DNA from: an uncultured Gammaproteobacteria bacterium
GTDB taxonomy: Bacteria; Patescibacteriota; Microgenomatia; Levybacterales; GWA1-39-11
Direction: 5' to 3'
Assembly (NCBI GenBank): GCA_964504535.1
Contig: CAZDED010000003.1
Location: forward strand, 70,850-134,849
Length of the DNA stretch: 64,000 nt
Positions 2,210 to 54,190 of the stretch are shown in pieces. Made by a program: the position numbers and the translations under genes. Each line of letters starts with the position of its first letter. Position 1 is the first letter of the stretch. A model generated the notes under the pieces. The model did not search any database, was not told the DNA's origin, and was given only the letters and a program-made list of their open reading frames with translations.

Positions 2210-3043
2210 ATGGAAATTAATGGTAAGCAAATTCAAGAAGAATTACTGGTCGATTTAAAACTTAGAATAGCAAACTTAAAAGAAAATGGAGTGACACCTT
2301 GCATTGCAATTGTGACACTAGGACCTGAAGAAACTTGGGAGGCGTATGTGGGACAGAAAATCAAACTTGCAAAAAAGCTTGATATAACAGCAAAACTTGT
2401 AAATCTTAGGCCCACAAATACGGATGACGTACTAGCGGCTATTTCAGAACTAAATTCCGATCCATCTATTCATGGGCTCATAGTCCAACGACCTTTTCCG
2501 ACATATATTGATACAGAAAGAATAATTCAAAGTATATCAAAAGAGAAAGATATCGACGGCTTTAGAAATGACTCTTTATACGAAGTCCCAGTCTGGTTAG
2601 CAGTCAAACACCTTATCAGTCAGGGATCAAAACTGCTAAATGCTCCTGAAATACAGTTTTGGCTGTCAAATCAATCTATTCTGGTCATTGGGAAGGGTGA
2701 AACCGCTGGTACTCCGATCATAAATGGACTCTCAAAAATGCAAATCAAAACTATGGTTATGGATAGCAAAACGTCTGATCGTAACAGTCTATTTGAAAAA
2801 GCAGACATCATAATTTTCGCAACAGGAAAACATATCGATGTACCCTACGAATTACTCAAAAAAAATTGTATCCTTATAGGAATTGGACTACATAGAACTG
2901 AGGGCAAATTAGTAGGTGATTTCGACGAATTTGAGGCTAAAAGTCACGGCTTATATTATACGCCATCACCAGGAGGGGTCGGACCCCTAAACCTCTATTA
3001 CCTTTTTGAAAATCTCGTAACGTCCGCAGAAAAATCCTCTTGA
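2210..3043 (+). CDS. folD: bifunctional methylenetetrahydrofolate dehydrogenase/cyclohydrolase
   Basis: length ~277 aa; FolD signature YTPSPGGVGPLN; NAD(P)-binding GKGETAG. Confidence 0.8.
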   Translation: MEINGKQIQEELLVDLKLRIANLKENGVTPCIAIVTLGPEETWEAYVGQKIKLAKKLDITAKLVNLRPTNTDDVLAAISELNSDPSIHGLIVQRPFPTYIDTERIIQSISKEKDIDGFRNDSLYEVPVWLAVKHLISQGSKLLNAPEIQFWLSNQSILVIGKGETAGTPIINGLSKMQIKTMVMDSKTSDRNSLFEKADIIIFATGKHIDVPYELLKKNCILIGIGLHRTEGKLVGDFDEFEAKSHGLYYTPSPGGVGPLNLYYLFENLVTSAEKSS

Positions 3044-3390
3044 CACTTTTTCCATTTCTTTATAAAGTAGTAGGAATGTCAGAATTCCCTCCTGCAAAAC
3101 CCGACGTTGAAGTAATCCTTAATGCTCAGTCTTTTTTTCGCAAATACCCCACAACCGGCTGGCTTGATAATTTAGCTGATAATGTTGCGAATGAAGCAAA
3201 TACTAGAAAAGGGGCAGAGGTTGATCTCTCAGTCGTCGAACCAGTCCAAGTTGATTTAGGACTTGCAAGATTTGAAGGTTTTGAAAGAACGAATGGTCAA
3301 ATCTGGTGCGGCACCTTTGTTCTTATTCCGGAGGAAGTACCTTGCCCTATACCCGTCGCCCAGTTTACAGTTTCAGAACCCCAAAGTTAA
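3040..3390 (+). CDS. hypothetical protein (true start possibly M at ~3076)
   Basis: ORF track only; no recognisable motif. Confidence 0.25.
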   Translation: MTLFPFLYKVVGMSEFPPAKPDVEVILNAQSFFRKYPTTGWLDNLADNVANEANTRKGAEVDLSVVEPVQVDLGLARFEGFERTNGQIWCGTFVLIPEEVPCPIPVAQFTVSEPQS

Positions 3391-3410
3391 TTGGTATAAT
3401 AGATATCTTC

Positions 3411-4460
3411 ATGAAGAAAACGACCAAGATTATTTTTAGTTTGGTGATCCTTTTTGCAGTCATTTTTCTTCTCGCGATTTATTTTACAAGAACTACTTCC
3501 AATACAAAAACTTCAGACGAAAGCTTGGCTGATTCAGCCCAAAGTAAGTACGCAACTTTCCCATTGTCCATAGAGTATCAGAGAAATCAAAGTTATCCAG
3601 GAAGTGATTTTAAGATAGAAAGGACTCTTTCTAATGGAAGTAATTACCACCAATACGTCGCTTCGTATGAGTCTGACGGCCTCAAAATATATGGTCTTTT
3701 GTCGGTTCCAACAACCGAAATGCCGGTCGGTGGATATCCGGCAATTATATTTAACCACGGATATATCCCTCCCGAAGAGTACAGAACAAATGAGCGGTAT
3801 GTCGCTTATTTTGATGGCTTTGCAAGAGAAGGGTACATCGTATTTAAACCCGACTACAGGGGGCATGGAGACTCAGAAGGAAAACCTGAGGGAGCATATT
3901 TTTCTCCAGCCTACATGACAGATGTTTTAAATGCCCTTTCGAGTGTTGAGAAAATGAAAGAAGTAAACAAAGAAAAAATAGGCATGTGGGGACATTCATT
4001 GGGCGGTTTCTTAACCCTAAGAGCGCTTGTAATCACAAAAGATATTAAAGCAGCAGTCATATGGGGTGGAGTAGTGGGGTCTTACAAAGAAATGTCTGAG
4101 GACTGGTGGGCGAAAAGAACTGTCCCCTCATTTACTCCATCTCAAAGAGAACTTCAATCGAACAGACCATCCCGTCAGAATTTCATAAAGCAGTACGGCA
4201 ATCCATCAGACAGTGAGTTCTGGAATGCAATATCAGCAACAACTTATACTGATGACATTACGGCTCCTATTCAACTACATCACGGGCTGTCTGATGAAAC
4301 AGTCCCTTCGACACTTTCGCAAAGATTATATGACCGCCTCGTATCGAAAGGAAAGACAATAGAACTATACACTTACGAAGGCTCCGACCATAATATCTCG
4401 CAAGGCTTTGGACTTGCCATGAGTCGTTCTGTTGCTTTTTTTGCAAAATATCTTAAATAG
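3411..4460 (+). CDS. alpha/beta-fold hydrolase (S9 peptidase / dienelactone-hydrolase-like), membrane-anchored
   Basis: N-terminal TM helix after MKKTTK; GxSxG nucleophile elbow GMWGHSLGG; C-terminal Asp/His region; start chosen at ATG 3411 in frame with track ORF 3306..4460. Confidence 0.6.
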   Translation: MKKTTKIIFSLVILFAVIFLLAIYFTRTTSNTKTSDESLADSAQSKYATFPLSIEYQRNQSYPGSDFKIERTLSNGSNYHQYVASYESDGLKIYGLLSVPTTEMPVGGYPAIIFNHGYIPPEEYRTNERYVAYFDGFAREGYIVFKPDYRGHGDSEGKPEGAYFSPAYMTDVLNALSSVEKMKEVNKEKIGMWGHSLGGFLTLRALVITKDIKAAVIWGGVVGSYKEMSEDWWAKRTVPSFTPSQRELQSNRPSRQNFIKQYGNPSDSEFWNAISATTYTDDITAPIQLHHGLSDETVPSTLSQRLYDRLVSKGKTIELYTYEGSDHNISQGFGLAMSRSVAFFAKYLK

Positions 4461-4514
4461 ACGCTCCAATCCCATTGACCCGTCCAGTATTTTTTTGTAT
4501 AGTGGTCTGTATTA

Positions 4515-5306
4515 GTGATAGCTCAAAAAGTTAAAAAACTTTATAAACTTCTTGCCAAAAGACTTCGAAAAAAACGCTTCCCCGTTTTCCTCATCGCAAG
4601 TATTCTCTTCTCGTGCATTCTAATAACCGTTGGGTTGAGCTCTTATCTTTTCGTAAAAGACGTGCGAGGTGAGAGTGTGCTGGGCACTCAAATTGCGAAG
4701 GTCGAAAAAACTACTACTCTTATAAGTCCCGTTGTTGAGATAAGTTTGATACCGACAAGTTCTCCAGTCCCTACACCAACACCTACCCAAATTCCAATCC
4801 CCACCCAGTCAAAACCAACTCCAACAAAAACAGAAATTCCACAAGGAGGCAACACTGCCCAATACACTGCACAAAAAATAAATGACGTTACATGGAAGGT
4901 CAGCAACCTCATTAATGACGATAGGATGTCAACCCCTCAAGAACTTCTCAATGCTTTAAACTCTTACAGAGGAAGCCATGGCATCGGTAATCTTACATGG
5001 GACCAAAAACTTGGAGACTATGCACAGGGCAGGGCAGATCTTTTCTCAAAGAACGGATCCCTTGATTCTCATGCAGGATTTACTAATTTTATGAACAATG
5101 GTGGGTTTGATATTTCTGGATTTAATTCTCTTGGTGAAAATTCCGCCTATCTTTCAGGACCCATGAATTCTGAAAGGATAGTCAAAAGTATATTTGGGGC
5201 AGATGCATCCCATGATGGCAATCAACTCGATGGATCATGGACTCATGTTGGAATTGGAGTAAATGGACGAGCCGTGAATATTAATTTCGGAAAAAACAGA
5301 AAGTAA
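4515..5306 (+). CDS. CAP/SCP (YkwD-like) domain protein with N-terminal TM anchor and Pro/Thr-rich linker
   Basis: C-terminal GENSAY...SHDGNQLDGSWTHVGIGV matches bacterial CAP domain signature. Confidence 0.55.
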   Translation: MIAQKVKKLYKLLAKRLRKKRFPVFLIASILFSCILITVGLSSYLFVKDVRGESVLGTQIAKVEKTTTLISPVVEISLIPTSSPVPTPTPTQIPIPTQSKPTPTKTEIPQGGNTAQYTAQKINDVTWKVSNLINDDRMSTPQELLNALNSYRGSHGIGNLTWDQKLGDYAQGRADLFSKNGSLDSHAGFTNFMNNGGFDISGFNSLGENSAYLSGPMNSERIVKSIFGADASHDGNQLDGSWTHVGIGVNGRAVNINFGKNRK

Positions 5307-46601: not shown

Positions 46602-47183
46602 TTGGGATTATATACTAAAAAAGACACTCTTACAAATATTATGAGCTCATATTACCAGCAAAAACAAATGATTGCCACCTGCGACAAGAATGGAAATATT
46701 ACTGGGGAAGTTGAAAAATGGGAGGCGCATAAAAAAGGAATTTTGCACAGGGCATACACTGTAGCTATTATGCACAAAGGGAAACTTTTGCTCCAGCACA
46801 GAAAACATCCTGCCTTTGGAGGGGTTTTGGATGCAACTATTTCTTCGCATCAACTCGTTATTAACGGAAAACTTGAGGATACTATAGAATCTACAATAAG
46901 GACTCTTGAGCGTGAGTGGAACATCACAAAAAAAGATCTGTTAAAACCTATTAGAAATGACGGGTGGGTATATTACAAAGCAAATGATAAATTTTCGGAT
47001 TTTATTGAGCATGAAGTATGCGATATCTTGATCGCTGAGATCAAATCAATTAAGGAACCGAATTTTGAATTCGCATATGGATATTCTGTCGTTACTCTGG
47101 ACGAATTGCACGACACATCGACGCTACTATACACGACACTCGCTCCATGGGTACAAGTCATGATTCAAAAAAAACTTCTCTAA
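46602..47183 (+). CDS. idi: isopentenyl-diphosphate delta-isomerase type 1-like (NUDIX fold)
   Basis: LHRAYTV / LLLQHRKHPAFGGVLD / HEVCDI correspond to IDI-1 conserved blocks; catalytic Cys appears replaced by Ser. Confidence 0.5.
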   Translation: MGLYTKKDTLTNIMSSYYQQKQMIATCDKNGNITGEVEKWEAHKKGILHRAYTVAIMHKGKLLLQHRKHPAFGGVLDATISSHQLVINGKLEDTIESTIRTLEREWNITKKDLLKPIRNDGWVYYKANDKFSDFIEHEVCDILIAEIKSIKEPNFEFAYGYSVVTLDELHDTSTLLYTTLAPWVQVMIQKKLL

Positions 47184-47315
47184 TTTCTAAAAAATAAAGA
47201 TATTTTCTACCTTTAGTAGTATAATCTAGCTAAATTTGAGGACAAACTAGCAGAAATGCTCTCCTAGCACGTTTTCATTTTTTATTTTACTTGCACATTG
47301 AAATTATTGGGAGAA

Positions 47316-47367
47316 GTCATATTCGACAATCAGGTTATATGCTTGTAGTTTGATTGTCGAATATGAC
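47316..47367. promoter_or_regulatory. perfect 17-bp inverted repeat GTCATATTCGACAATCA-N18-TGATTGTCGAATATGAC immediately upstream of RBS
   Basis: seen directly. Confidence 0.6.
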
Positions 47368-47384
47368 ACAGGAGGAAGTGAACT

Positions 47385-47531
47385 TTGTCTAGGAAAAAGG
47401 AGGTGGCACCACCCCTACCCAACTCGAAGGCTGCCCGCCAGGCTGCGTACAGGAAGATGACGAATTATGCACTGAGCATCGTCTTAGTACTGTACGTTGC
47501 CATCATGGCTACGGGCGCCATCATCAAGTAG
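47385..47531 (+). CDS. small GC-rich ORF, 48 aa, TTG start, single C-terminal TM helix
   Basis: GGAGG 9 nt upstream of TTG; GC-rich codons; hydrophobic YALSIVLVLYVAIMATGAII. Confidence 0.35.
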   Translation: MSRKKEVAPPLPNSKAARQAAYRKMTNYALSIVLVLYVAIMATGAIIK

Positions 47532-47679
47532 TCGTCTTCGTCTATGAGGACGTTAAAAATGGCGAAAAGGAGGGCTGGCTAACCGAGCCGCATCATAAGT
47601 GACTGAGGGAGTTGCACGAACACGCCCCGGGTTTTCCCGGGGCAACAGAACCACCCCGCGCAACGGGGGGAGGGAGAAC

Positions 47680-48021
47680 ATGTCACTCTTAAGAATCTTC
47701 GGATCGAAGAAGGCTCCAGCTGCGACCAAGGTCGTAGAAGCGCCTTACGTGCCGAAGAACACGCCGCCGCCTGGCTTCGTGCGCCTTTCCAAACCGGAAG
47801 GTGCAGACGACAAGGATCTTTGCGGAGATTACAACGGCTGGATTTGTCCGCCCGATCCGGATTGCACGATCTGCTTTTACGGCGGGTACATGAAGGTCGA
47901 CAACGACATCCAGGTTTGCGCCTGCCGACGCGCTGACGACAAGGTCAGAGCGAGCACGGCAGCTGCATCTGCAGCTGCAGAATCGCACAAGCTCTCCATG
48001 TCCAAGGGAAGCAAATCCTGA
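47680..48021 (+). CDS. GC-rich Cys-rich small protein (113 aa, 7 Cys)
   Basis: RBS GGGAGGGAG 4 nt upstream of ATG 47680 (internal Met of track ORF 47599..48021); CGDYNGWICPPDPDCTICF...CACRR. Confidence 0.5.
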   Translation: MSLLRIFGSKKAPAATKVVEAPYVPKNTPPPGFVRLSKPEGADDKDLCGDYNGWICPPDPDCTICFYGGYMKVDNDIQVCACRRADDKVRASTAAASAAAESHKLSMSKGSKS

Positions 48022-48061
48022 AGGCAGTCTTCCAACTCCCAGAGTTCTCTGTGCAAATCAG

Positions 48062-48094
48062 GCCACCTCCACCCAGGAGGTGGCCTTTTTTGTA
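48062..48094 (+). terminator. intrinsic terminator GGCCACCTCC-ACCCA-GGAGGTGGCC + TTTTTT
   Basis: seen directly. Confidence 0.75.
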
Positions 48095-48132
48095 TTGTGA
48101 TAAGGACCCCACATCAAGTACAGGGTGACAGT

Positions 48133-49545
48133 CTAGCTGGAGATATTGATTTCAACTGTCACTTTTTTCCCTATAATATTTTCTGCTGATTTCAGAAGAT
48201 CCGGATATACTTTTTCAGACTTTAGACGCTCGGCATGGATCGGAAATGGCGTTTGAATCAACAAAGCCCCACCGTCCAAACTTGCTTCTTTTGCCGAACG
48301 TAATAATGCAGCACCCGGCTTGTTGACCTCATTGAGACTTGCAATCAAATCCGCTAAAAGATTGGAATTAGAATTAGGGGTTTTGGATTCTTTCTTTTTT
48401 TCTCCTGACTCTTGCCTATTTCCTTCTGTCTTGTGACTAGTGTCTAATGTCTTTTGTCTTGCGTCTCCCGTCTCCTGCTTACTATCCCCTGCACCCTGTA
48501 CCCTGTCAATGATGCAGTACTTAACCGTCATAAGCTCTAAAGGAAGCTGGGGGATAACAGACATTCTGAGCTCTCCATATGCTTCGTTGGCAAGTTCCAA
48601 AAGATTTTTGATGCTACTTATCTCCAAACCTTTAATGTCCATTACATCACTTTCTATCCCGTTTCTTATCATAAGTAACCCCCTAAGATGATCAACTAAT
48701 TTTTCAATAACTATCTTAAAATCCGCACCAGAATCATTTAACGTGCTTATTGTACGAAGAGCCTCTCTTGCATTCTTTGAAGCATATGCCTCAAGTAACG
48801 CAACTACTTCATTGTTCATTCCCTTTATACGGAATGTTTTTTCGAATAGATCAATTGTAATCTGCTTGCCTTTCGAAGAAAGGGATAACTCTTCCAGTAG
48901 CTTTGCTCCATCCCGAAAGCTACCTTCAGAAATTTTATATATCTCTTTCAGAACTTCTTCATCAATTTTTAATTTTTCGCCCTCAACAATCCTTTTTAAT
49001 GAGTGGACCAGCTCCTCTTCGGTTGGTTTTTCGAATTGGACCTGGAAAGTTCGAGATATTACAGTTGCTGGCAGCTTTTGGAGTTCTGTAGTTGCCAAAA
49101 CAAAAACAACATGGGAAGGTGGTTCTTCCAAGGTCTTAAGTAATGCATTGAAGGCACCAGTTGATAACATATGCACTTCGTCGATGATGTATACCTTTTT
49201 TTTAAGGGTTGACGATGCAAATTTTACCCGCTCACGAAGCGTACGCATCTCCTCTACTCCCCCATTTGAAGCAGCATCAATTTCTAAAACATCAATATTT
49301 GAACCATTGGTGATGGAAACGCAATTTTCGCAAACATTACACGGCTCAATTCCTTTGGGAGTTAAACAGTTGATTGATTTTGCTAAAATTCGGGCTGATG
49401 ATGTCTTCCCAAGACCCTTACTACCGGTAAATAAAAATGCATGTGGAATTTCTTTTGAGGAAAGAATGGCGGTCAACTTTTCCCGGACGCTAAAAAGATC
49501 AAGATCTGAGATTGTTTGGGGGCGGTATTTTCGATAGTAAACCAT
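48133..49545 (-). CDS. dnaX: DNA polymerase III subunit gamma/tau
   Basis: MVYYRKYRPQTISDL; Walker A GSKGLGKTSSAR; Zn module CNVCENC. Confidence 0.9.
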   Translation of the reverse strand: MVYYRKYRPQTISDLDLFSVREKLTAILSSKEIPHAFLFTGSKGLGKTSSARILAKSINCLTPKGIEPCNVCENCVSITNGSNIDVLEIDAASNGGVEEMRTLRERVKFASSTLKKKVYIIDEVHMLSTGAFNALLKTLEEPPSHVVFVLATTELQKLPATVISRTFQVQFEKPTEEELVHSLKRIVEGEKLKIDEEVLKEIYKISEGSFRDGAKLLEELSLSSKGKQITIDLFEKTFRIKGMNNEVVALLEAYASKNAREALRTISTLNDSGADFKIVIEKLVDHLRGLLMIRNGIESDVMDIKGLEISSIKNLLELANEAYGELRMSVIPQLPLELMTVKYCIIDRVQGAGDSKQETGDARQKTLDTSHKTEGNRQESGEKKKESKTPNSNSNLLADLIASLNEVNKPGAALLRSAKEASLDGGALLIQTPFPIHAERLKSEKVYPDLLKSAENIIGKKVTVEINISS

Positions 49546-49644: not shown

Positions 49645-50031
49645 CTATCTGTGATGAAATCCTAGAAGGTGCATGAGGCTATGTTCTACTAATTCGTCAA
49701 CTCGGTCGTCAATGAGCATGTTGTCACGAGCACACTCCTCTATAACTTTAGGGTAAGAAAGGACAATATCTCCCAGATAGAGCTTGTCTGGAGGTTGCAT
49801 GACACCATCCCCTTCGGTTTGGGAAAATGAAAGAACATTTGTTGATTTGTCGATATCTCTATATTTCTTATTGAGAGCCCTCATCTTTCGGTTTCCGATA
49901 ACGGCAATACTGACATCCACAGGACTTGTTATGTGCTGTTTTAACAGAACTTTAATAACGGTATCCTTAATCCTTTTTCGATTAATTTTATACCGGCTTT
50001 CCACATAAATCGGGATAGAGATAGAATTCAT
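49645..50031 (-). CDS. ybeY: rRNA maturation endoribonuclease YbeY
   Basis: HSLMHLLGFHH zinc motif. Confidence 0.7.
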   Translation of the reverse strand: MNSISIPIYVESRYKINRKRIKDTVIKVLLKQHITSPVDVSIAVIGNRKMRALNKKYRDIDKSTNVLSFSQTEGDGVMQPPDKLYLGDIVLSYPKVIEECARDNMLIDDRVDELVEHSLMHLLGFHHR

Positions 50032-50053: not shown

Positions 50054-50239
50054 CTAGTATTGATTGTGCTTTGCCATTTTTTGCTTCAGTGCTTTTTTGA
50101 ATTTTTTTGCCAATGAAGGCTTAAGATGAAATTCTCTTTTTTTCATCTCATGAATAATACCCTCGCTCATAACTTTGCGAGAAAATTTTCTGATCATAGC
50201 ATCTGGGCTGTCGCCAGGTTGTTTTTTAATAAAAACCAT
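50054..50239 (-). CDS. rpsU: 30S ribosomal protein S21
   Basis: 61 aa basic; MVFIKKQPGDSPDAMIRKFSRKV; RBS AAGGAGGTG. Confidence 0.8.
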   Translation of the reverse strand: MVFIKKQPGDSPDAMIRKFSRKVMSEGIIHEMKKREFHLKPSLAKKFKKALKQKMAKHNQY

Positions 50240-50479
50240 AGAATAAAAACACCTCCTTAAAACACTTGTACTTACTACAAGATACGGTAATTATACCTCA
50301 AAAGCTTTTCAAAAAAAACTAATAGATTTTGAGGTACTAGCTTTGCTTATATCTCAACTTCATCAAAATATAAATACGTGCATTGAGATAGAGAACGATA
50401 GGGCTCATACCTCAAACTCATTTTCAAATAAAACTACCTTGAAATATGTTTATTCATATCCTATAATCTCTTTACCGTA

Positions 50480-51250
50480 AACGCTTTCCCGCTTATACGG
50501 GCACTTTTATATACATTTGCATGTTCCACCCGCTTGTCGGGTGTTTCATAATCCATATGAAGAGGTTAGACATGTAGGAGCGCCCACACAGCCGCATCAT
50601 CATCAGAAGCAGGCAGACACCCGTAAGGGTCTGTCCGACAACATCAAGCCTGCCATCTTGGCGGTAACGTCTGAATACTCAAGTGGGTGATGGACGGGGG
50701 GACTGACCCCGTCCTGATCCTCAGATAGGGATTTAGTGGGTTACCTGATTCACGAATATCAGGTAATTTTCGCTGAGTTTCTACCAACACCCTTGATCGC
50801 ACGTGATCCAGAAGTTTTAGTTGCACATAGATGTGACTATTCCTCCGACTTGAGTTATAGGCTGGATCTCTGGCCTAGCCCTATCCGCTTTTCCCGCTGC
50901 AGATAAGCAGCACGATTTAGGAAAGTGGGAGAGGCCACTTTCAAACGGGACGAGCCAACTACCTCTGGGTTTCTACCGTCTTGTCGGCTCGTCCCACCTC
51001 TAGACGGGTTCAGTGCAGGCGTAAGGGCCTGCACTTCCCCTCTTCCCGGGGGGAGGTGGGTGCGATACCACCTCCCCCTATGGGGACATGCAAATGACTA
51101 GACACATCCTGTCTGCCATCGCTTAATGAGCGCAAGCGAAATTGGGCGGACCGTGATTGATCAGGGAGCTTTTTTAGGCTCCCAATTCTTGCTCCCGCCG
51201 GCGCCTCTGACAGAGAACCGGCGGGAGTCATACAACAATTTCCCACACAA
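50480..51250 (+). ncRNA. GC-rich, ORF-free, hairpin-dense candidate large structured ncRNA of unknown class (strand assigned from GNRA tetraloop orientation)
   Basis: >=8 stem-loops seen directly (e.g. 50614-50633, 50694-50716, 50925-50945, 50947-50995, 51010-51035, 51163-51183, 51192-51222); GUAA/GCAA loops. Confidence 0.45.
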
Positions 51251-51285
51251 AAATTTCTGTTTAAAGTTTGAAATAATCGTTTAGG

Positions 51286-51618
51286 TTACTTAATTGGCGC
51301 TTGTAGCCCCGTTGGACCAATGAGGTGAAAATGAAGATGATTGATGACTTGCCCGCCTCCGGCATTTACTAATATTTTATACCCTTTTCCAACCAAATCT
51401 GTTTCATCAACTATTTTTTGGATACCTTTCCTAACAGAAGACAAAACATCATCGTCATGCAAATCTTCAAAAGCTCCATAATGCTCTTTACTTATGAAAA
51501 GCACATGGATTTTTGCAACAGGATGGATATCATCAAATGCCAAGACATTTTCGTCCTTAAATCTAAAGTCCTTCGGAATTTCCCCTTTAACAATCTCGCA
51601 AAAAATACAATCATTCAT
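51286..51618 (-). CDS. HIT-family (histidine triad) nucleotide hydrolase
   Basis: HLHFHLIG histidine triad. Confidence 0.8.
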   Translation of the reverse strand: MNDCIFCEIVKGEIPKDFRFKDENVLAFDDIHPVAKIHVLFISKEHYGAFEDLHDDDVLSSVRKGIQKIVDETDLVGKGYKILVNAGGGQVINHLHFHLIGPTGLQAPIK

Positions 51619-53314: not shown

Positions 53315-53487
53315 GAGGGTAATTATAGCATGCTTAAGACTCTGCCTATATCTCATGTCTCTCACCCAGTAGGATTTATGTCCTCCTTTACCCTTGTGGT
53401 ATAATCGGACAGTTATTGTGCACTCTGCGACTTGAGCGGAAAATGCACGACAGCACATTCAAAATTGGTCGAAAGAAAGGGCACTCA

Positions 53488-54015
53488 ATGCTCACTGTCA
53501 TTCTCGTTGCTCTCACAGGACTACTTCTTGGCGTGTACCTTGCTCGCCGCCATCATGAACAAACCGGAACCAGTATCTGGTTCGGCATGATCGGTATCAT
53601 GTTCGGAACAACCGTTGGACTCATCATCGCCACAGTCTGGGGCAACTCCAGTCCCACGAAATGGGAGGAAGTCAACAGGAGAGAGCTTTACGGCCTCTCA
53701 AACGGCCTCAGCGCAACGGGAGGAGGACGCGTATATGTACGTATCTCTCCTACCAACGCGTACACCTATTGGTATCCTGTCAAGAATGACATCAACGGTA
53801 TTCCCGTTGAGGACTCGTTCCGCTCAGAAACCGCTTGGGGAAACGTTCAGATCATCCAAGAGGAGCGCCAAGGCGGTATTCTGGTCATCTATCAAAAGGT
53901 GTGCGCCAAAAATGCTTATGATCTGTGGAGATTCTGCAGTATCGAAAGCAACAACCGCCAATACTCCTTCTATGTTCCGAAAGGAACAGTAGCTGGAACG
54001 TACGAGCTCAAGTAA
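53488..54015 (+). CDS. GC-elevated membrane-anchored protein (2 N-terminal TM plus beta-rich domain), unknown
   Basis: ATG 53488 with AAGAAAGGG upstream; followed by 12-bp GC hairpin at ~54018-54045. Confidence 0.45.
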   Translation: MLTVILVALTGLLLGVYLARRHHEQTGTSIWFGMIGIMFGTTVGLIIATVWGNSSPTKWEEVNRRELYGLSNGLSATGGGRVYVRISPTNAYTYWYPVKNDINGIPVEDSFRSETAWGNVQIIQEERQGGILVIYQKVCAKNAYDLWRFCSIESNNRQYSFYVPKGTVAGTYELK

Positions 54016-54190
54016 TCGACCAACGCCGGGGTATGCACAAGCATATCCCGGCACCCACACTGTTTCCTCAAAATGCTTTGCATTTTTAAACGTTCACAAA
54101 AGTTTATTTCGGGATATTTTTCTCGATATGATTTCCCCATGCCTAAATAGACCAGATAAAATTCTGGTCCATATTTACCATTCGAAATAG

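Follow-up and report, generated by a model that had tools for sequence, protein, structure and literature searches.

Characterized large bacterial RNAs, among them rRNA, RNase P RNA, introns and transfer-messenger RNA (tmRNA) and, more recently, OLE, GOLLD and ROOL, perform sophisticated biochemistry or assemble in unexpected ways, and to our knowledge few bacterial RNAs of such size and structural complexity have been described. We know of no conserved translated leader mini-open reading frame (mini-ORF) in OLE, GOLLD, ROOL or raiA, and of no earlier structured non-coding RNA (ncRNA) that has a RAPP-type stalling peptide or a start-stop ahead of it. The arrest motif RAPP, and especially RGPP, stalls ribosomes in many sequence contexts and is refractory to EF-P, and these are experimentally the most versatile arrest motifs (PMC12992588). 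In 10 of the 17 major bacterial groups analysed, no tetrapeptide is more strongly under-represented than RGPP (PMC12992588), and RSPP and RAPG are related arrest motifs (PMC12992588; see also PMC10951233, PMC7897499). Here we analyse a 64,000-nt stretch of a Levybacterales genome (hereafter the window; positions 70,850 to 134,849 of contig CAZDED010000003.1, assembly GCA_964504535.1), in which a GC-rich island between the HIT gene and rpsU-ybeY-dnaX very probably holds a genuine structured RNA gene of an undescribed family. The first-pass annotation of this DNA had proposed a large structured ncRNA of unknown class at this place, a reading borne out by a structure that is conserved with compensatory changes in about ten lineages and matches no Rfam family.

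We collected 80 species-level Levybacteria loci through DnaX (individual loci carry handles such as L011). HIT and rpsU are typically 13-300 bp apart in Levybacteria, with a low-GC spacer; the gap measures 0.9-2.2 kb at 50-54% GC in L011, L012, L013, L015 and L020, and the L014 locus ends at a contig end, with HIT not found therein. An nhmmer search with the island retrieves L011 (E = 5e-39) and L020 (E = 5e-28), a three-sequence profile adds L012, L014 and L015, and contigs reached via other DnaX relatives add L171/L172, L175, L177/L178 and L179. L013 and L015 join the family by their leader, and L013 also by a long-range helix; their 3' domains were not recovered by a search with R1, a covariance model of the 3' domain. 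The family comprises about ten Levybacteria lineages with the RNA in the same HIT-rpsU gap, and it is confined to a subclade of Candidatus Levybacteria (Levyibacteriota), the group within the candidate phyla radiation (CPR/Patescibacteria) in which DnaX homologs place the window. Nucleotide identity between lineages is 66-76%, their DnaX proteins are 79-82% identical, and an identical island is carried by contigs from several samples.

Six close homologs were aligned with MAFFT without reference to structure, and from this alignment RNAalifold derived a consensus of 166 pairs in 24 helices. Across this full-length alignment 92.3% of cells are paired, versus 39-51% in slid registers, and 22 pairs are changed on both sides, versus 10.2 ± 2.2 in shuffled alignments (0 of 500 reach 22) and 8-13 in slid ones. 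A search with R1 finds the distant L012 (E = 8e-9) and L014 (E = 7e-13). The alignment fitted to R1, for that reason biased towards the structure, has 97.1% of its cells paired and both-sided changes at 18 of 41 pairs, a count that none of 500 shuffles reaches. The covariation among homologs that the first-pass annotation looked to is thus seen as compensatory changes in the RNAalifold consensus, set apart from both shuffled and slid controls.

Searches for described families came back empty. Rfam 15 at gathering score finds two tRNAs only in the whole window and nothing in 11 homologous loci. At E ≤ 10 the region 50250-51350 gives only irrelevant sub-threshold matches, the best being ar7, an alphaproteobacterial sRNA, at 28.6 bits versus a threshold of 60, and at E ≤ 5 five homologous loci yield nothing relevant. 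The families listed for checking in the first-pass annotation (RNase P, tmRNA, introns, OLE, GOLLD, ROOL and HEARO) were all covered, with no match even at E ≤ 10. More specifically, RNase P models gave no match at gathering score, at E ≤ 10 in 50250-51350 or at E ≤ 5 in the five homologous loci; OLE, GOLLD, ROOL, HEARO and raiA models gave none in the island at E ≤ 10, in the homologous loci at E ≤ 5 or in the 11 loci at gathering score; and group I and II introns gave none at E ≤ 10. ARAGORN detects no tmRNA in the window, and neither it nor Rfam finds tmRNA features, which agrees with the earlier judgement that this is no obvious housekeeping RNA. A literature search found no description of such a large ncRNA in Levybacteria or CPR bacteria. 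As the RNA has no defining feature of any known family, we assign it to a new one.

The island is also non-coding in bulk. Its longest ORF is at most 78 aa, a Pfam search of its ORFs finds no match, including for a 73-aa minus-strand ORF predicted by a gene caller, substitutions among homologs lack 3-base periodicity, and the lengths of 70-90% of indels are indivisible by 3. We rejected a protein-coding island on these grounds; homologs show compensatory changes in place of the conserved coding potential that the first-pass annotation had named as the finding that would count against it. Its description of the island as ORF-free holds for the bulk of this copy but not for the family, which has a conserved leader mini-ORF that is here only AUG-UAG.

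Folding energy supports structure on both strands. The plus strand of the island has a minimum free energy of -320 kcal/mol versus -254 ± 8.6 in dinucleotide shuffles (z = -7.7), and folding of the minus strand is comparable (z = -8.7), so folding energy shows structure, not orientation. Orientation is given by two other features. A sigma-70 promoter at 50439..50467 (+), with -35 TTGAAA at 50439-50444, a 17-nt spacer and -10 TATAAT at 50462-50467, agrees with the consensus at 11 of 12 positions, and both hexamers are kept in all homologs while the spacer sequence varies. In addition, the 3' domain helices of eight sequences contain 274 Watson-Crick, 31 G·U and 3 A·C pairs; since a G·U pair on one strand is an A·C mismatch on the other, 31 versus 3 fixes the plus strand. 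The predicted RNA gene is thus on the plus strand, fixed by the conserved promoter and the G·U/A·C asymmetry. The first-pass annotation had chosen the same, correct strand from GNRA loops, but these are only partly conserved among homologs and are weak strand evidence. Transcription probably starts at about 50474-50476. The gene, of what we call the A type, would span 50475..51250 (+; about 755-790 nt), with its 5' end set from the promoter and its 3' end placed only as somewhere past a terminal hairpin that ends at 51227. Lengths in the family range from about 755 nt for the window copy, the shortest, to about 1000 nt, and some homologs carry an internal duplication.

The overall architecture is set by a 14-bp long-range helix between 50514..50527 (CAUUUGCAUGUUCC) and 51082..51096 (GGGGACAUGCAAAUG), which closes a core of about 555 nt; beyond it lies a 3' domain of about 130 nt. 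Duplexfold gives this pairing as the best duplex for the 5' strand in 8-9 A-type members; it covaries (U-A, U·G, C-G) in the close group and has other spellings in L012 and L014. The 5' strand is preceded by hairpin P1 (50477..50510; outer stem 50477-50483/50504-50510, inner stem 50488-50491/50498-50501), which corresponds to RNAalifold helices 1 and 2 and has 5 of 6 pairs changed on both sides in its inner stem. It is followed by hairpin P3 (50527..50543; CACCCG-CUUGU-CGGGUG), which is preceded by CAUGUUCC and followed by a conserved GUUUCA. All 12 of 12 sequences preserve the six pairs of P3, and compensatory changes occur at four of these.

Past P3 lies the feature that would connect this RNA to translation. 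Every member (12-13 sequences) carries an SD-like (Shine-Dalgarno-like) GGAG(A)GG with a start codon 5-9 nt on, 105-135 nt past the -10 box. In the window this ribosome-loading site spans 50559..50577 (+; SD-like GAAGAGG 50559-50565, AUG 50572-50574, UAG 50575-50577) and lies about 100 nt from the RNA 5' end. The ORF of the relatives has 16-18 codons (22 in L020) and encodes MVIQAYSHGPNKGPPRL in L011, MVGKLHTCDPNKGPPRV in L175, MEKMTNGYGPNKGPPRS in L178, MSLTGLSGNKGPPGSAS in L013, MKDTTGLFGDRGPPGSAS in L015, MPRHALGCPFVGRPPP in L012 and MSYHALGCPYVGRPPP in L014. These peptides contain RGPP (L015), KGPP (L011, L020, L175, L178 and L013) or RPPP-stop (L012 and L014), and units described below contain RSPP-stop (unit 1 of L181) or RYPG-stop (the B type). 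The leader ORF is under purifying selection, with a ratio of nonsynonymous to synonymous change (pN/pS) of 0.41 (Fisher p = 9e-5, five independent pairs); in the motif part pN is 0.05 versus a pS of 0.47 (p = 1e-7). Peptide and hairpin constraints may act together, some synonymous changes also being compensatory.

The ORF is reduced to AUG-UAG in the window and in L171, which have identical SD, spacing and start-stop and DnaX proteins about 79% identical. Relative to L175, ATGGTAGG has become ATGTAGG through a 1-nt loss, and the ORF body is deleted; no peptide is encoded in the window, and its ORF accordingly has no RAPP-like motif. Since these two loci keep the RNA without the peptide, the peptide is dispensable for retention of the RNA, and what is kept is the ribosome-loading site. 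As a separate observation, L011 has GGCUCUAG twice, flanking GAGCC, at the end of its small ORF, about 45 nt past the KGPP codons. The pair gives two mutually exclusive hairpins, one of which includes the ORF stop codon, an attenuator-like layout that is not conserved in L020 or L178.

Related units stand beside the A type in several loci. L171 and L175 each have a second unit, of B type, which lies behind the first, reads in the same direction and carries a promoter and a 5' hairpin of its own. Its leader consists of (U/C)AUGUU(C/U)C, a P3-like hairpin, GUUUCAUAA, an SD and the 11-codon ORF MVHVGPHRYPG, which differs between L171 and L175 by synonymous changes only; another copy of this ORF in L175 has a different N-terminus. 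The unit continues with about 500 nt of GC-rich sequence up to a canonical terminator. B-type units are the best non-training matches of a covariance model built from A-type leaders alone, at a weak E = 5e-4 and E = 0.1, and a sequence-only profile of A-type leaders does not detect them. They are probable paralogs of the A type. Two more divergent units are present in L181; the ORF of one ends in RSPP-stop, and more than 15 tandem CCAUUAG heptamers come after the second RNA-like unit, by the HIT stop codon (~1505-1600). In the same gap of L018 (4817-5200, reverse strand) we noted a unit of about 300 nt with a promoter, an SD, an AUG-UAA start-stop and a terminal hairpin. Its start-stop GGAGAUGGGACAUGUAAGGAG closely resembles GAAGAGGUUAGACAUGUAGGAG of the window, but it is without the CAUGUUCC/P3 leader, and the covariance models do not detect it. 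It may have arisen by reduction of a relative or by convergence.

The remaining hairpins of the core are a mixture of invariant, covarying and variable elements (every hairpin of the first-pass annotation is present in 50470-51270 where it had been placed). A hairpin at 50612..50636 (+; GGCAGACACC-CGUAAG-GGUCUGUCC, containing CAGACaCC-GUAA-GGGUCUG at 50614-50633) has a stem that is invariant in 6 of 6 close homologs and a loop (GUAA at 50623-50626) that is GUAA or GCAA in some and different in others. It is followed by GCCUGCC-AUCUU-GGCGGU (50648..50665, +; helix 8 of the consensus) with a conserved AACG on its 3' side. The hairpin at 50686..50720 (+; GGACGGGG/CCCCGUCC, N7 loop, 50692-50714) sits on a symmetric UGAU/UGAU internal loop; its helices 9 and 10 are 100% paired and invariant in sequence in the close group. 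The internal loop, which hardly varies, would form tandem G·A pairs. We dropped a kink-turn considered for GGUGAUGGAC...GUCCUGAUCC, as the UGAU/UGAU loop is symmetric and has no 3-nt bulge. The next stretch, which varies in length and content among homologs, contains a hairpin read from the sequence (50741..50766, +; UUACCUGAU-N8-AUCAGGUAA).

A conserved module at 50846..50942 (+) consists of a hairpin (50859-50881), UUUUCCC, GCUGC-AGAUAA-GCAGC (50896-50911), GAUUUAGGAA and GAAAGUGG-N6-CCACUUUC (50921-50942), and corresponds to consensus helices 13-15. It is single in the window and tandemly doubled in L011, L020/L179 and L178. The duplicated internal module comprises a hairpin, UUUUCCCGCGGCA-AUAAGCCGC and GAU-GAGGA (alignment columns ~470-700 of A2/A4); long poly-G/poly-C runs within the module region of L177 look like an assembly artefact. 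Beyond the module, helix 16 (50947..50996, +; 10-13 bp, GGGACGAGCC...GGCUCGUCCC) encloses a variable insert and is 97% paired with C-G to U-A changes. Two further hairpins were read from the sequence, GUGCAGGC-GUAAGG-GCCUGCAC at 51013..51034 (+), including GCAGGC-GUAAGG-GCCUGC, and GGGGGGAGGUGG-N8-CCACCUCCCCCU at 51048..51079 (+); consensus helix 17, in the region 51013-51079, has 5 pairs changed on both sides.

The 3' domain (51097..51227, +) begins with a small hairpin and continues with GUCUGCC (51111-51117) paired to GGCGGAC (51145-51151) around an inner UCGC/GCGA, the hairpin GGGAGC-N8-GCUCCC (51164-51183, +) and the terminal 10-bp hairpin (51192-51227, +; CCCGCCGG...CCGGCGGG). In L020 the terminal hairpin CUCCCGCCGG...CCGGCGGGAG is wholly respelled as GGGACCCUGCUG...CAGCAGGGUCCC at the same position. 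A G-poor, C/A-rich tail follows (51228..51262, +; UCAUACAACAAUUUCCCACACAAAAAUUUCUGUUU), without a U-tract terminator. No intrinsic terminator is found at the 3' end, where the terminal hairpin (51192-51227) precedes UCAUACAACAAUUUCCC, and the sole terminator-like site from a scan (51164-51183) is the internal conserved helix. In most members a UCCCACA...AAAAA motif adjoins the HIT stop codon. The tail could serve as a Rho entry site, and both it and a boxA-like element near the 5' end may fit a Rho-related logic.

GC content is 0.51 over 50470-51271. The island is therefore well above its surroundings, as the first-pass annotation held, though the backbone averages about 0.39 (per-kb range in the window 0.31-0.48) and not the 35% it had given. 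Gene coordinates also place the island where it had been put, with HIT (51286-51618, -) on one side and rpsU (50054-50239, -), ybeY (49645-50031, -) and dnaX (48133-49545, -) on the other. The RNA gene is divergent from rpsU and convergent with HIT, and the ORF list of the window contains no protein gene downstream of it on the plus strand. Neither blastn nor the leader covariance model finds a second copy of the island in the window, and we rejected a repeat or miniature inverted-repeat transposable element on account of this single copy. IMG/VR pattern scans and blastn of phage and plasmid collections gave no match, and a phage or plasmid origin was rejected for that reason.

How might the leader and the RNA be related? 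We tentatively suggest that a paused leader ribosome couples biogenesis of the RNA to translation. A ribosome would load on the nascent leader and pause there, in the relatives through nascent-peptide arrest and in the window copy through slow start-stop turnover. The paused ribosome could tie synthesis of a long untranslated RNA to translation status and shield the RNA from premature termination or decay. The pause might also set the order in which the core folds, ahead of the 3' strand of the long-range helix, which emerges about 570 nt later. The finished RNA would then act in trans as a scaffold, a ribonucleoprotein (RNP) component or a catalyst. Taken as one reading, a structured RNA gene of a new family together with such ribosome gating seems to us about evenly balanced between right and wrong. 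Two more specific versions we regard as speculative: that the mature core of ~555 nt and the 3' domain function as a lineage-specific ribozyme or RNP scaffold of these CPR bacteria, with ribosome-gated biogenesis, and, at a similarly modest level of belief, that the leader is an arrest-peptide switch which controls a non-coding RNA instead of a protein gene.

Several points weigh against this reading. Arrest cannot operate in the window copy, which has no peptide, and the start-stop there could be a decaying relic. KGPP, the motif of five members, has Lys where the assayed motifs have Arg, and, in contrast to every known arrest-peptide system, no protein gene lies downstream. The ends of the transcript and its occupancy by ribosomes are deduced from sequence, the covariation evidence rests on 6-12 sequences, and no partner protein has been identified. 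The distribution is patchy and the gap variable: L180, L016, L017 and L049 are without the RNA at this site, the latter three having short AT-rich gaps. As the RNA is absent from relatives of similar distance, we consider it an accessory element.

A regulatory role in cis would account for some of these features. The structured transcript and its leader ORF might control antisense read-through into the convergent HIT-ychF operon, or might hamper the divergent promoter of rpsU. In favour of this, a distance of 40-60 nt separates the RNA end from the HIT stop codon, a U-tract terminator is lacking, the element is always in the same gap, and arrest-type leader peptides are normally cis-acting (PMC12992588). 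We nonetheless consider this improbable, as about 750-1000 nt with 24 covarying helices far exceed what an attenuator needs, the second unit of L171 and L175 puts a canonical terminator between RNA and HIT that blocks read-through, and most Levybacteria have HIT and rpsU 13-300 bp apart without the element. A precursor organized like an rRNA operon, in which boxA antitermination and RNase III cutting of the stalk 50514-50527/51082-51096 release the core, the 3' domain or both, is given a similarly low chance and is compatible with ribosome gating of a new RNA rather than exclusive of it. Promoter, hairpin, GCUCUUUUACA or GUUCUUUGAAA, 5' stalk strand, core and 3' stalk strand do mirror rrn leaders, and boxA is also used on other long non-coding transcripts (PMC5725501, PMC7665894), a precedent that favours the precursor. 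The boxA-like element in question (50501..50511, +; GCACUUUUAUA in the window, GCUCUUUUACA or GUUCUUUGAAA in relatives) has a conserved position after P1. Measured against the gamma-proteobacterial consensus GYTCTTTAANA (PMC5725501), it matches at 9 of 11 positions in the window and 9-10 of 11 in relatives; the collected loci contain no Levybacteria rRNA leader. Its core 9-mer occurs at chance frequency in the window, so we treat the possible boxA identity as a lead only. A stalk of 14 bp is also short for RNase III.

The opposite emphasis, in which the 16-18 aa peptide is the functional product of an mRNA with a long structured 3' untranslated region and the window copy is a pseudogene, would explain both the purifying selection on the ORF in relatives and its disruption in the window by the 1-nt loss (ATGGTAGG to ATGTAGG) and body deletion. 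It is very improbable, in our estimation, given that the window and L171 have lost the ORF and retain the promoter, SD-AUG and ~700 nt of structure (76% nucleotide identity, with compensatory changes) and that the N-terminal half of the peptide has changed more than the RNA downstream; the data also speak against neutral evolution of the structured part where the ORF is lost. There is even less reason to favour a very divergent housekeeping or mobile-element RNA missed by Rfam, such as RNase P, tmRNA, a group I or II intron remnant or an insertion-sequence/TnpB guide. CPR RNAs can be atypical, which speaks for such a case, and the first-pass annotation had noted short resemblances to RNase P conserved regions (CR) I and V while finding no P4. 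That description is upheld: both strings sit in local hairpins. The CR-I-like AGGAAAGUGG is the 5' arm of a local covarying hairpin, in which the CR-I-like GGAAAGUGG pairs with CCACUUUC (ACCGU.../...ACGGU in L011), and the CR-V-like ACAGAGAACCGGC makes up the loop and 3' arm of the terminal hairpin, in whose place L020 has an unrelated one. The 5' and 3' ends are moreover unpaired, the permissive searches at E ≤ 10 (window) and E ≤ 5 (five homologous loci) and the ARAGORN run gave no match, many close relatives lack the element while others have tandem paralog-like units, and no transposase, reverse transcriptase or recombinase is adjacent. Least credible of all is a non-functional remnant of foreign GC-rich DNA with incidental hairpins. 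A hot-spot gap whose cargo differs between lineages and the other GC-rich islands of the window would suit it, but a remnant accounts neither for the conserved promoter, the compensatory changes and the G·U/A·C strand bias nor for a nucleotide identity (66-76%) in the same range as the DnaX protein identity (79-82%).

The HIT-rpsU gap is a hot spot for variable cargo. In L012 (~4000-5150) and L014 (~900-2050) an inserted ~350-aa protein, weakly matching GDSL lipase, separates the RNA from rpsU; in L180 a GDSL-like ORF takes the place of the RNA (2959-4008), and other relatives have unrelated ORFs of 413-453 aa in the gap. In L016 (4862-5218) and L017 (4947-5218), loci without the RNA, a ~75-nt unit (…UUUAAACnnnAAUGnGAUAGAGCACGUUAGGGCUCAUA…) is present three times in tandem in the gap; a single related copy (UGAGAUAGAGAACGAUAGGGCUCAUACCUCA) occupies 50378-50415 of the window, on the stretch from the rpsU start to the RNA promoter. 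L171 (1-600) is the only relative with a large serine recombinase gene (Resolvase/Recombinase/Zn_ribbon_recom) directly upstream of ychF.

Other GC-rich islands occur in the window. One (GC 0.54) at 47190-48132 (+), between an ORF at 46602-47183 and the dnaX 3' end, has a conserved promoter, a conserved 5' leader (a hairpin together with GCACAUUGAAAUUAUUGGGAGAAGUCGUAU...), a 3' end that hardly varies and includes the intrinsic terminator GGCCACCUCCACCCAGGAGGUGGCCUUUUUU and, between leader and terminator, two very fast-diverging small ORFs (one hydrophobic of ~24 aa, one Cys-rich of ~110 aa). It has no Rfam match, and gene callers leave about 1 kb here unannotated in all relatives, including L180, which is without the main RNA. 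Further islands at 1233-2179 and 53418-54062 (about 0.50) resemble small protein genes with strong SDs and hairpin terminators; a 199-aa ORF at 53416-54015 has hydrophobic segments. These islands suggest that GC-richer accessory cassettes are scattered through the genome.

Retained with compensatory changes in genome-reduced CPR bacteria, this new family of 0.75-1 kb RNAs is a strong candidate for a further function of the kind known from large RNAs, and if the ribosome-gating proposal is true, its leader links arrest-peptide sensing to the production or folding of an ncRNA. The family is a small and concrete set of about 13 sequences with defined helices and a defined ORF.

Set beside known systems, the RNA shares with an rRNA operon leader the order of promoter, hairpin, boxA-like U-rich element, 5' helix strand, large core and 3' strand, but the boxA match is imperfect and indistinguishable from chance, the core is not rRNA and the ribosome-loading site is enclosed by the long-range helix. 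Bacterial RNase P RNA is similar in being GC-rich and built of many helices, and the CR-I-like AGGAAAGU and CR-V-like ACAGAGAACCGGC recall it; unlike RNase P RNA, the new RNA has no P4, is twice the size, is accessory and is sometimes duplicated, and its termini do not pair with each other, the sole long-range helix joining nt ~40-53 with ~608-622. From tmRNA it differs in a mini-ORF that has an SD and AUG and a Pro-rich rather than Ala-Ala end, and from introns in being intergenic with its own promoter.

Among large, ornate ncRNAs, OLE, GOLLD, ROOL and raiA, whose functions are unknown or have only lately come into view, are likewise stand-alone genes of 0.6-1 kb with many conserved helices and no obvious coding capacity, form GC-rich intergenic islands in AT-richer genomes with a narrow or patchy distribution, and were discovered through intergenic GC and structure. 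Unlike many GOLLD and ROOL copies, the present RNA has no phage association, and no partner genes of the OLE type (oapA/B/C) were found. In its leader it resembles the RAPP-type leaders SecM, ApdA, ApdP, ApcA and CruR, which also combine a short ORF, a strong SD and R/K-x-P-P/G at or near the C-terminus; RGPP, found in L015, is the strongest known motif of this type (PMC12992588). Those leaders precede a protein gene and unmask its SD, whereas here ~650 nt of structured non-coding RNA follows; the putative arrest ORFs of this family have only 11-22 codons and are reduced to AUG-UAG in the window copy. The resemblance to OLE, GOLLD and ROOL is thus one of kind only, and that to arrest-peptide leaders lies only in the ORF.

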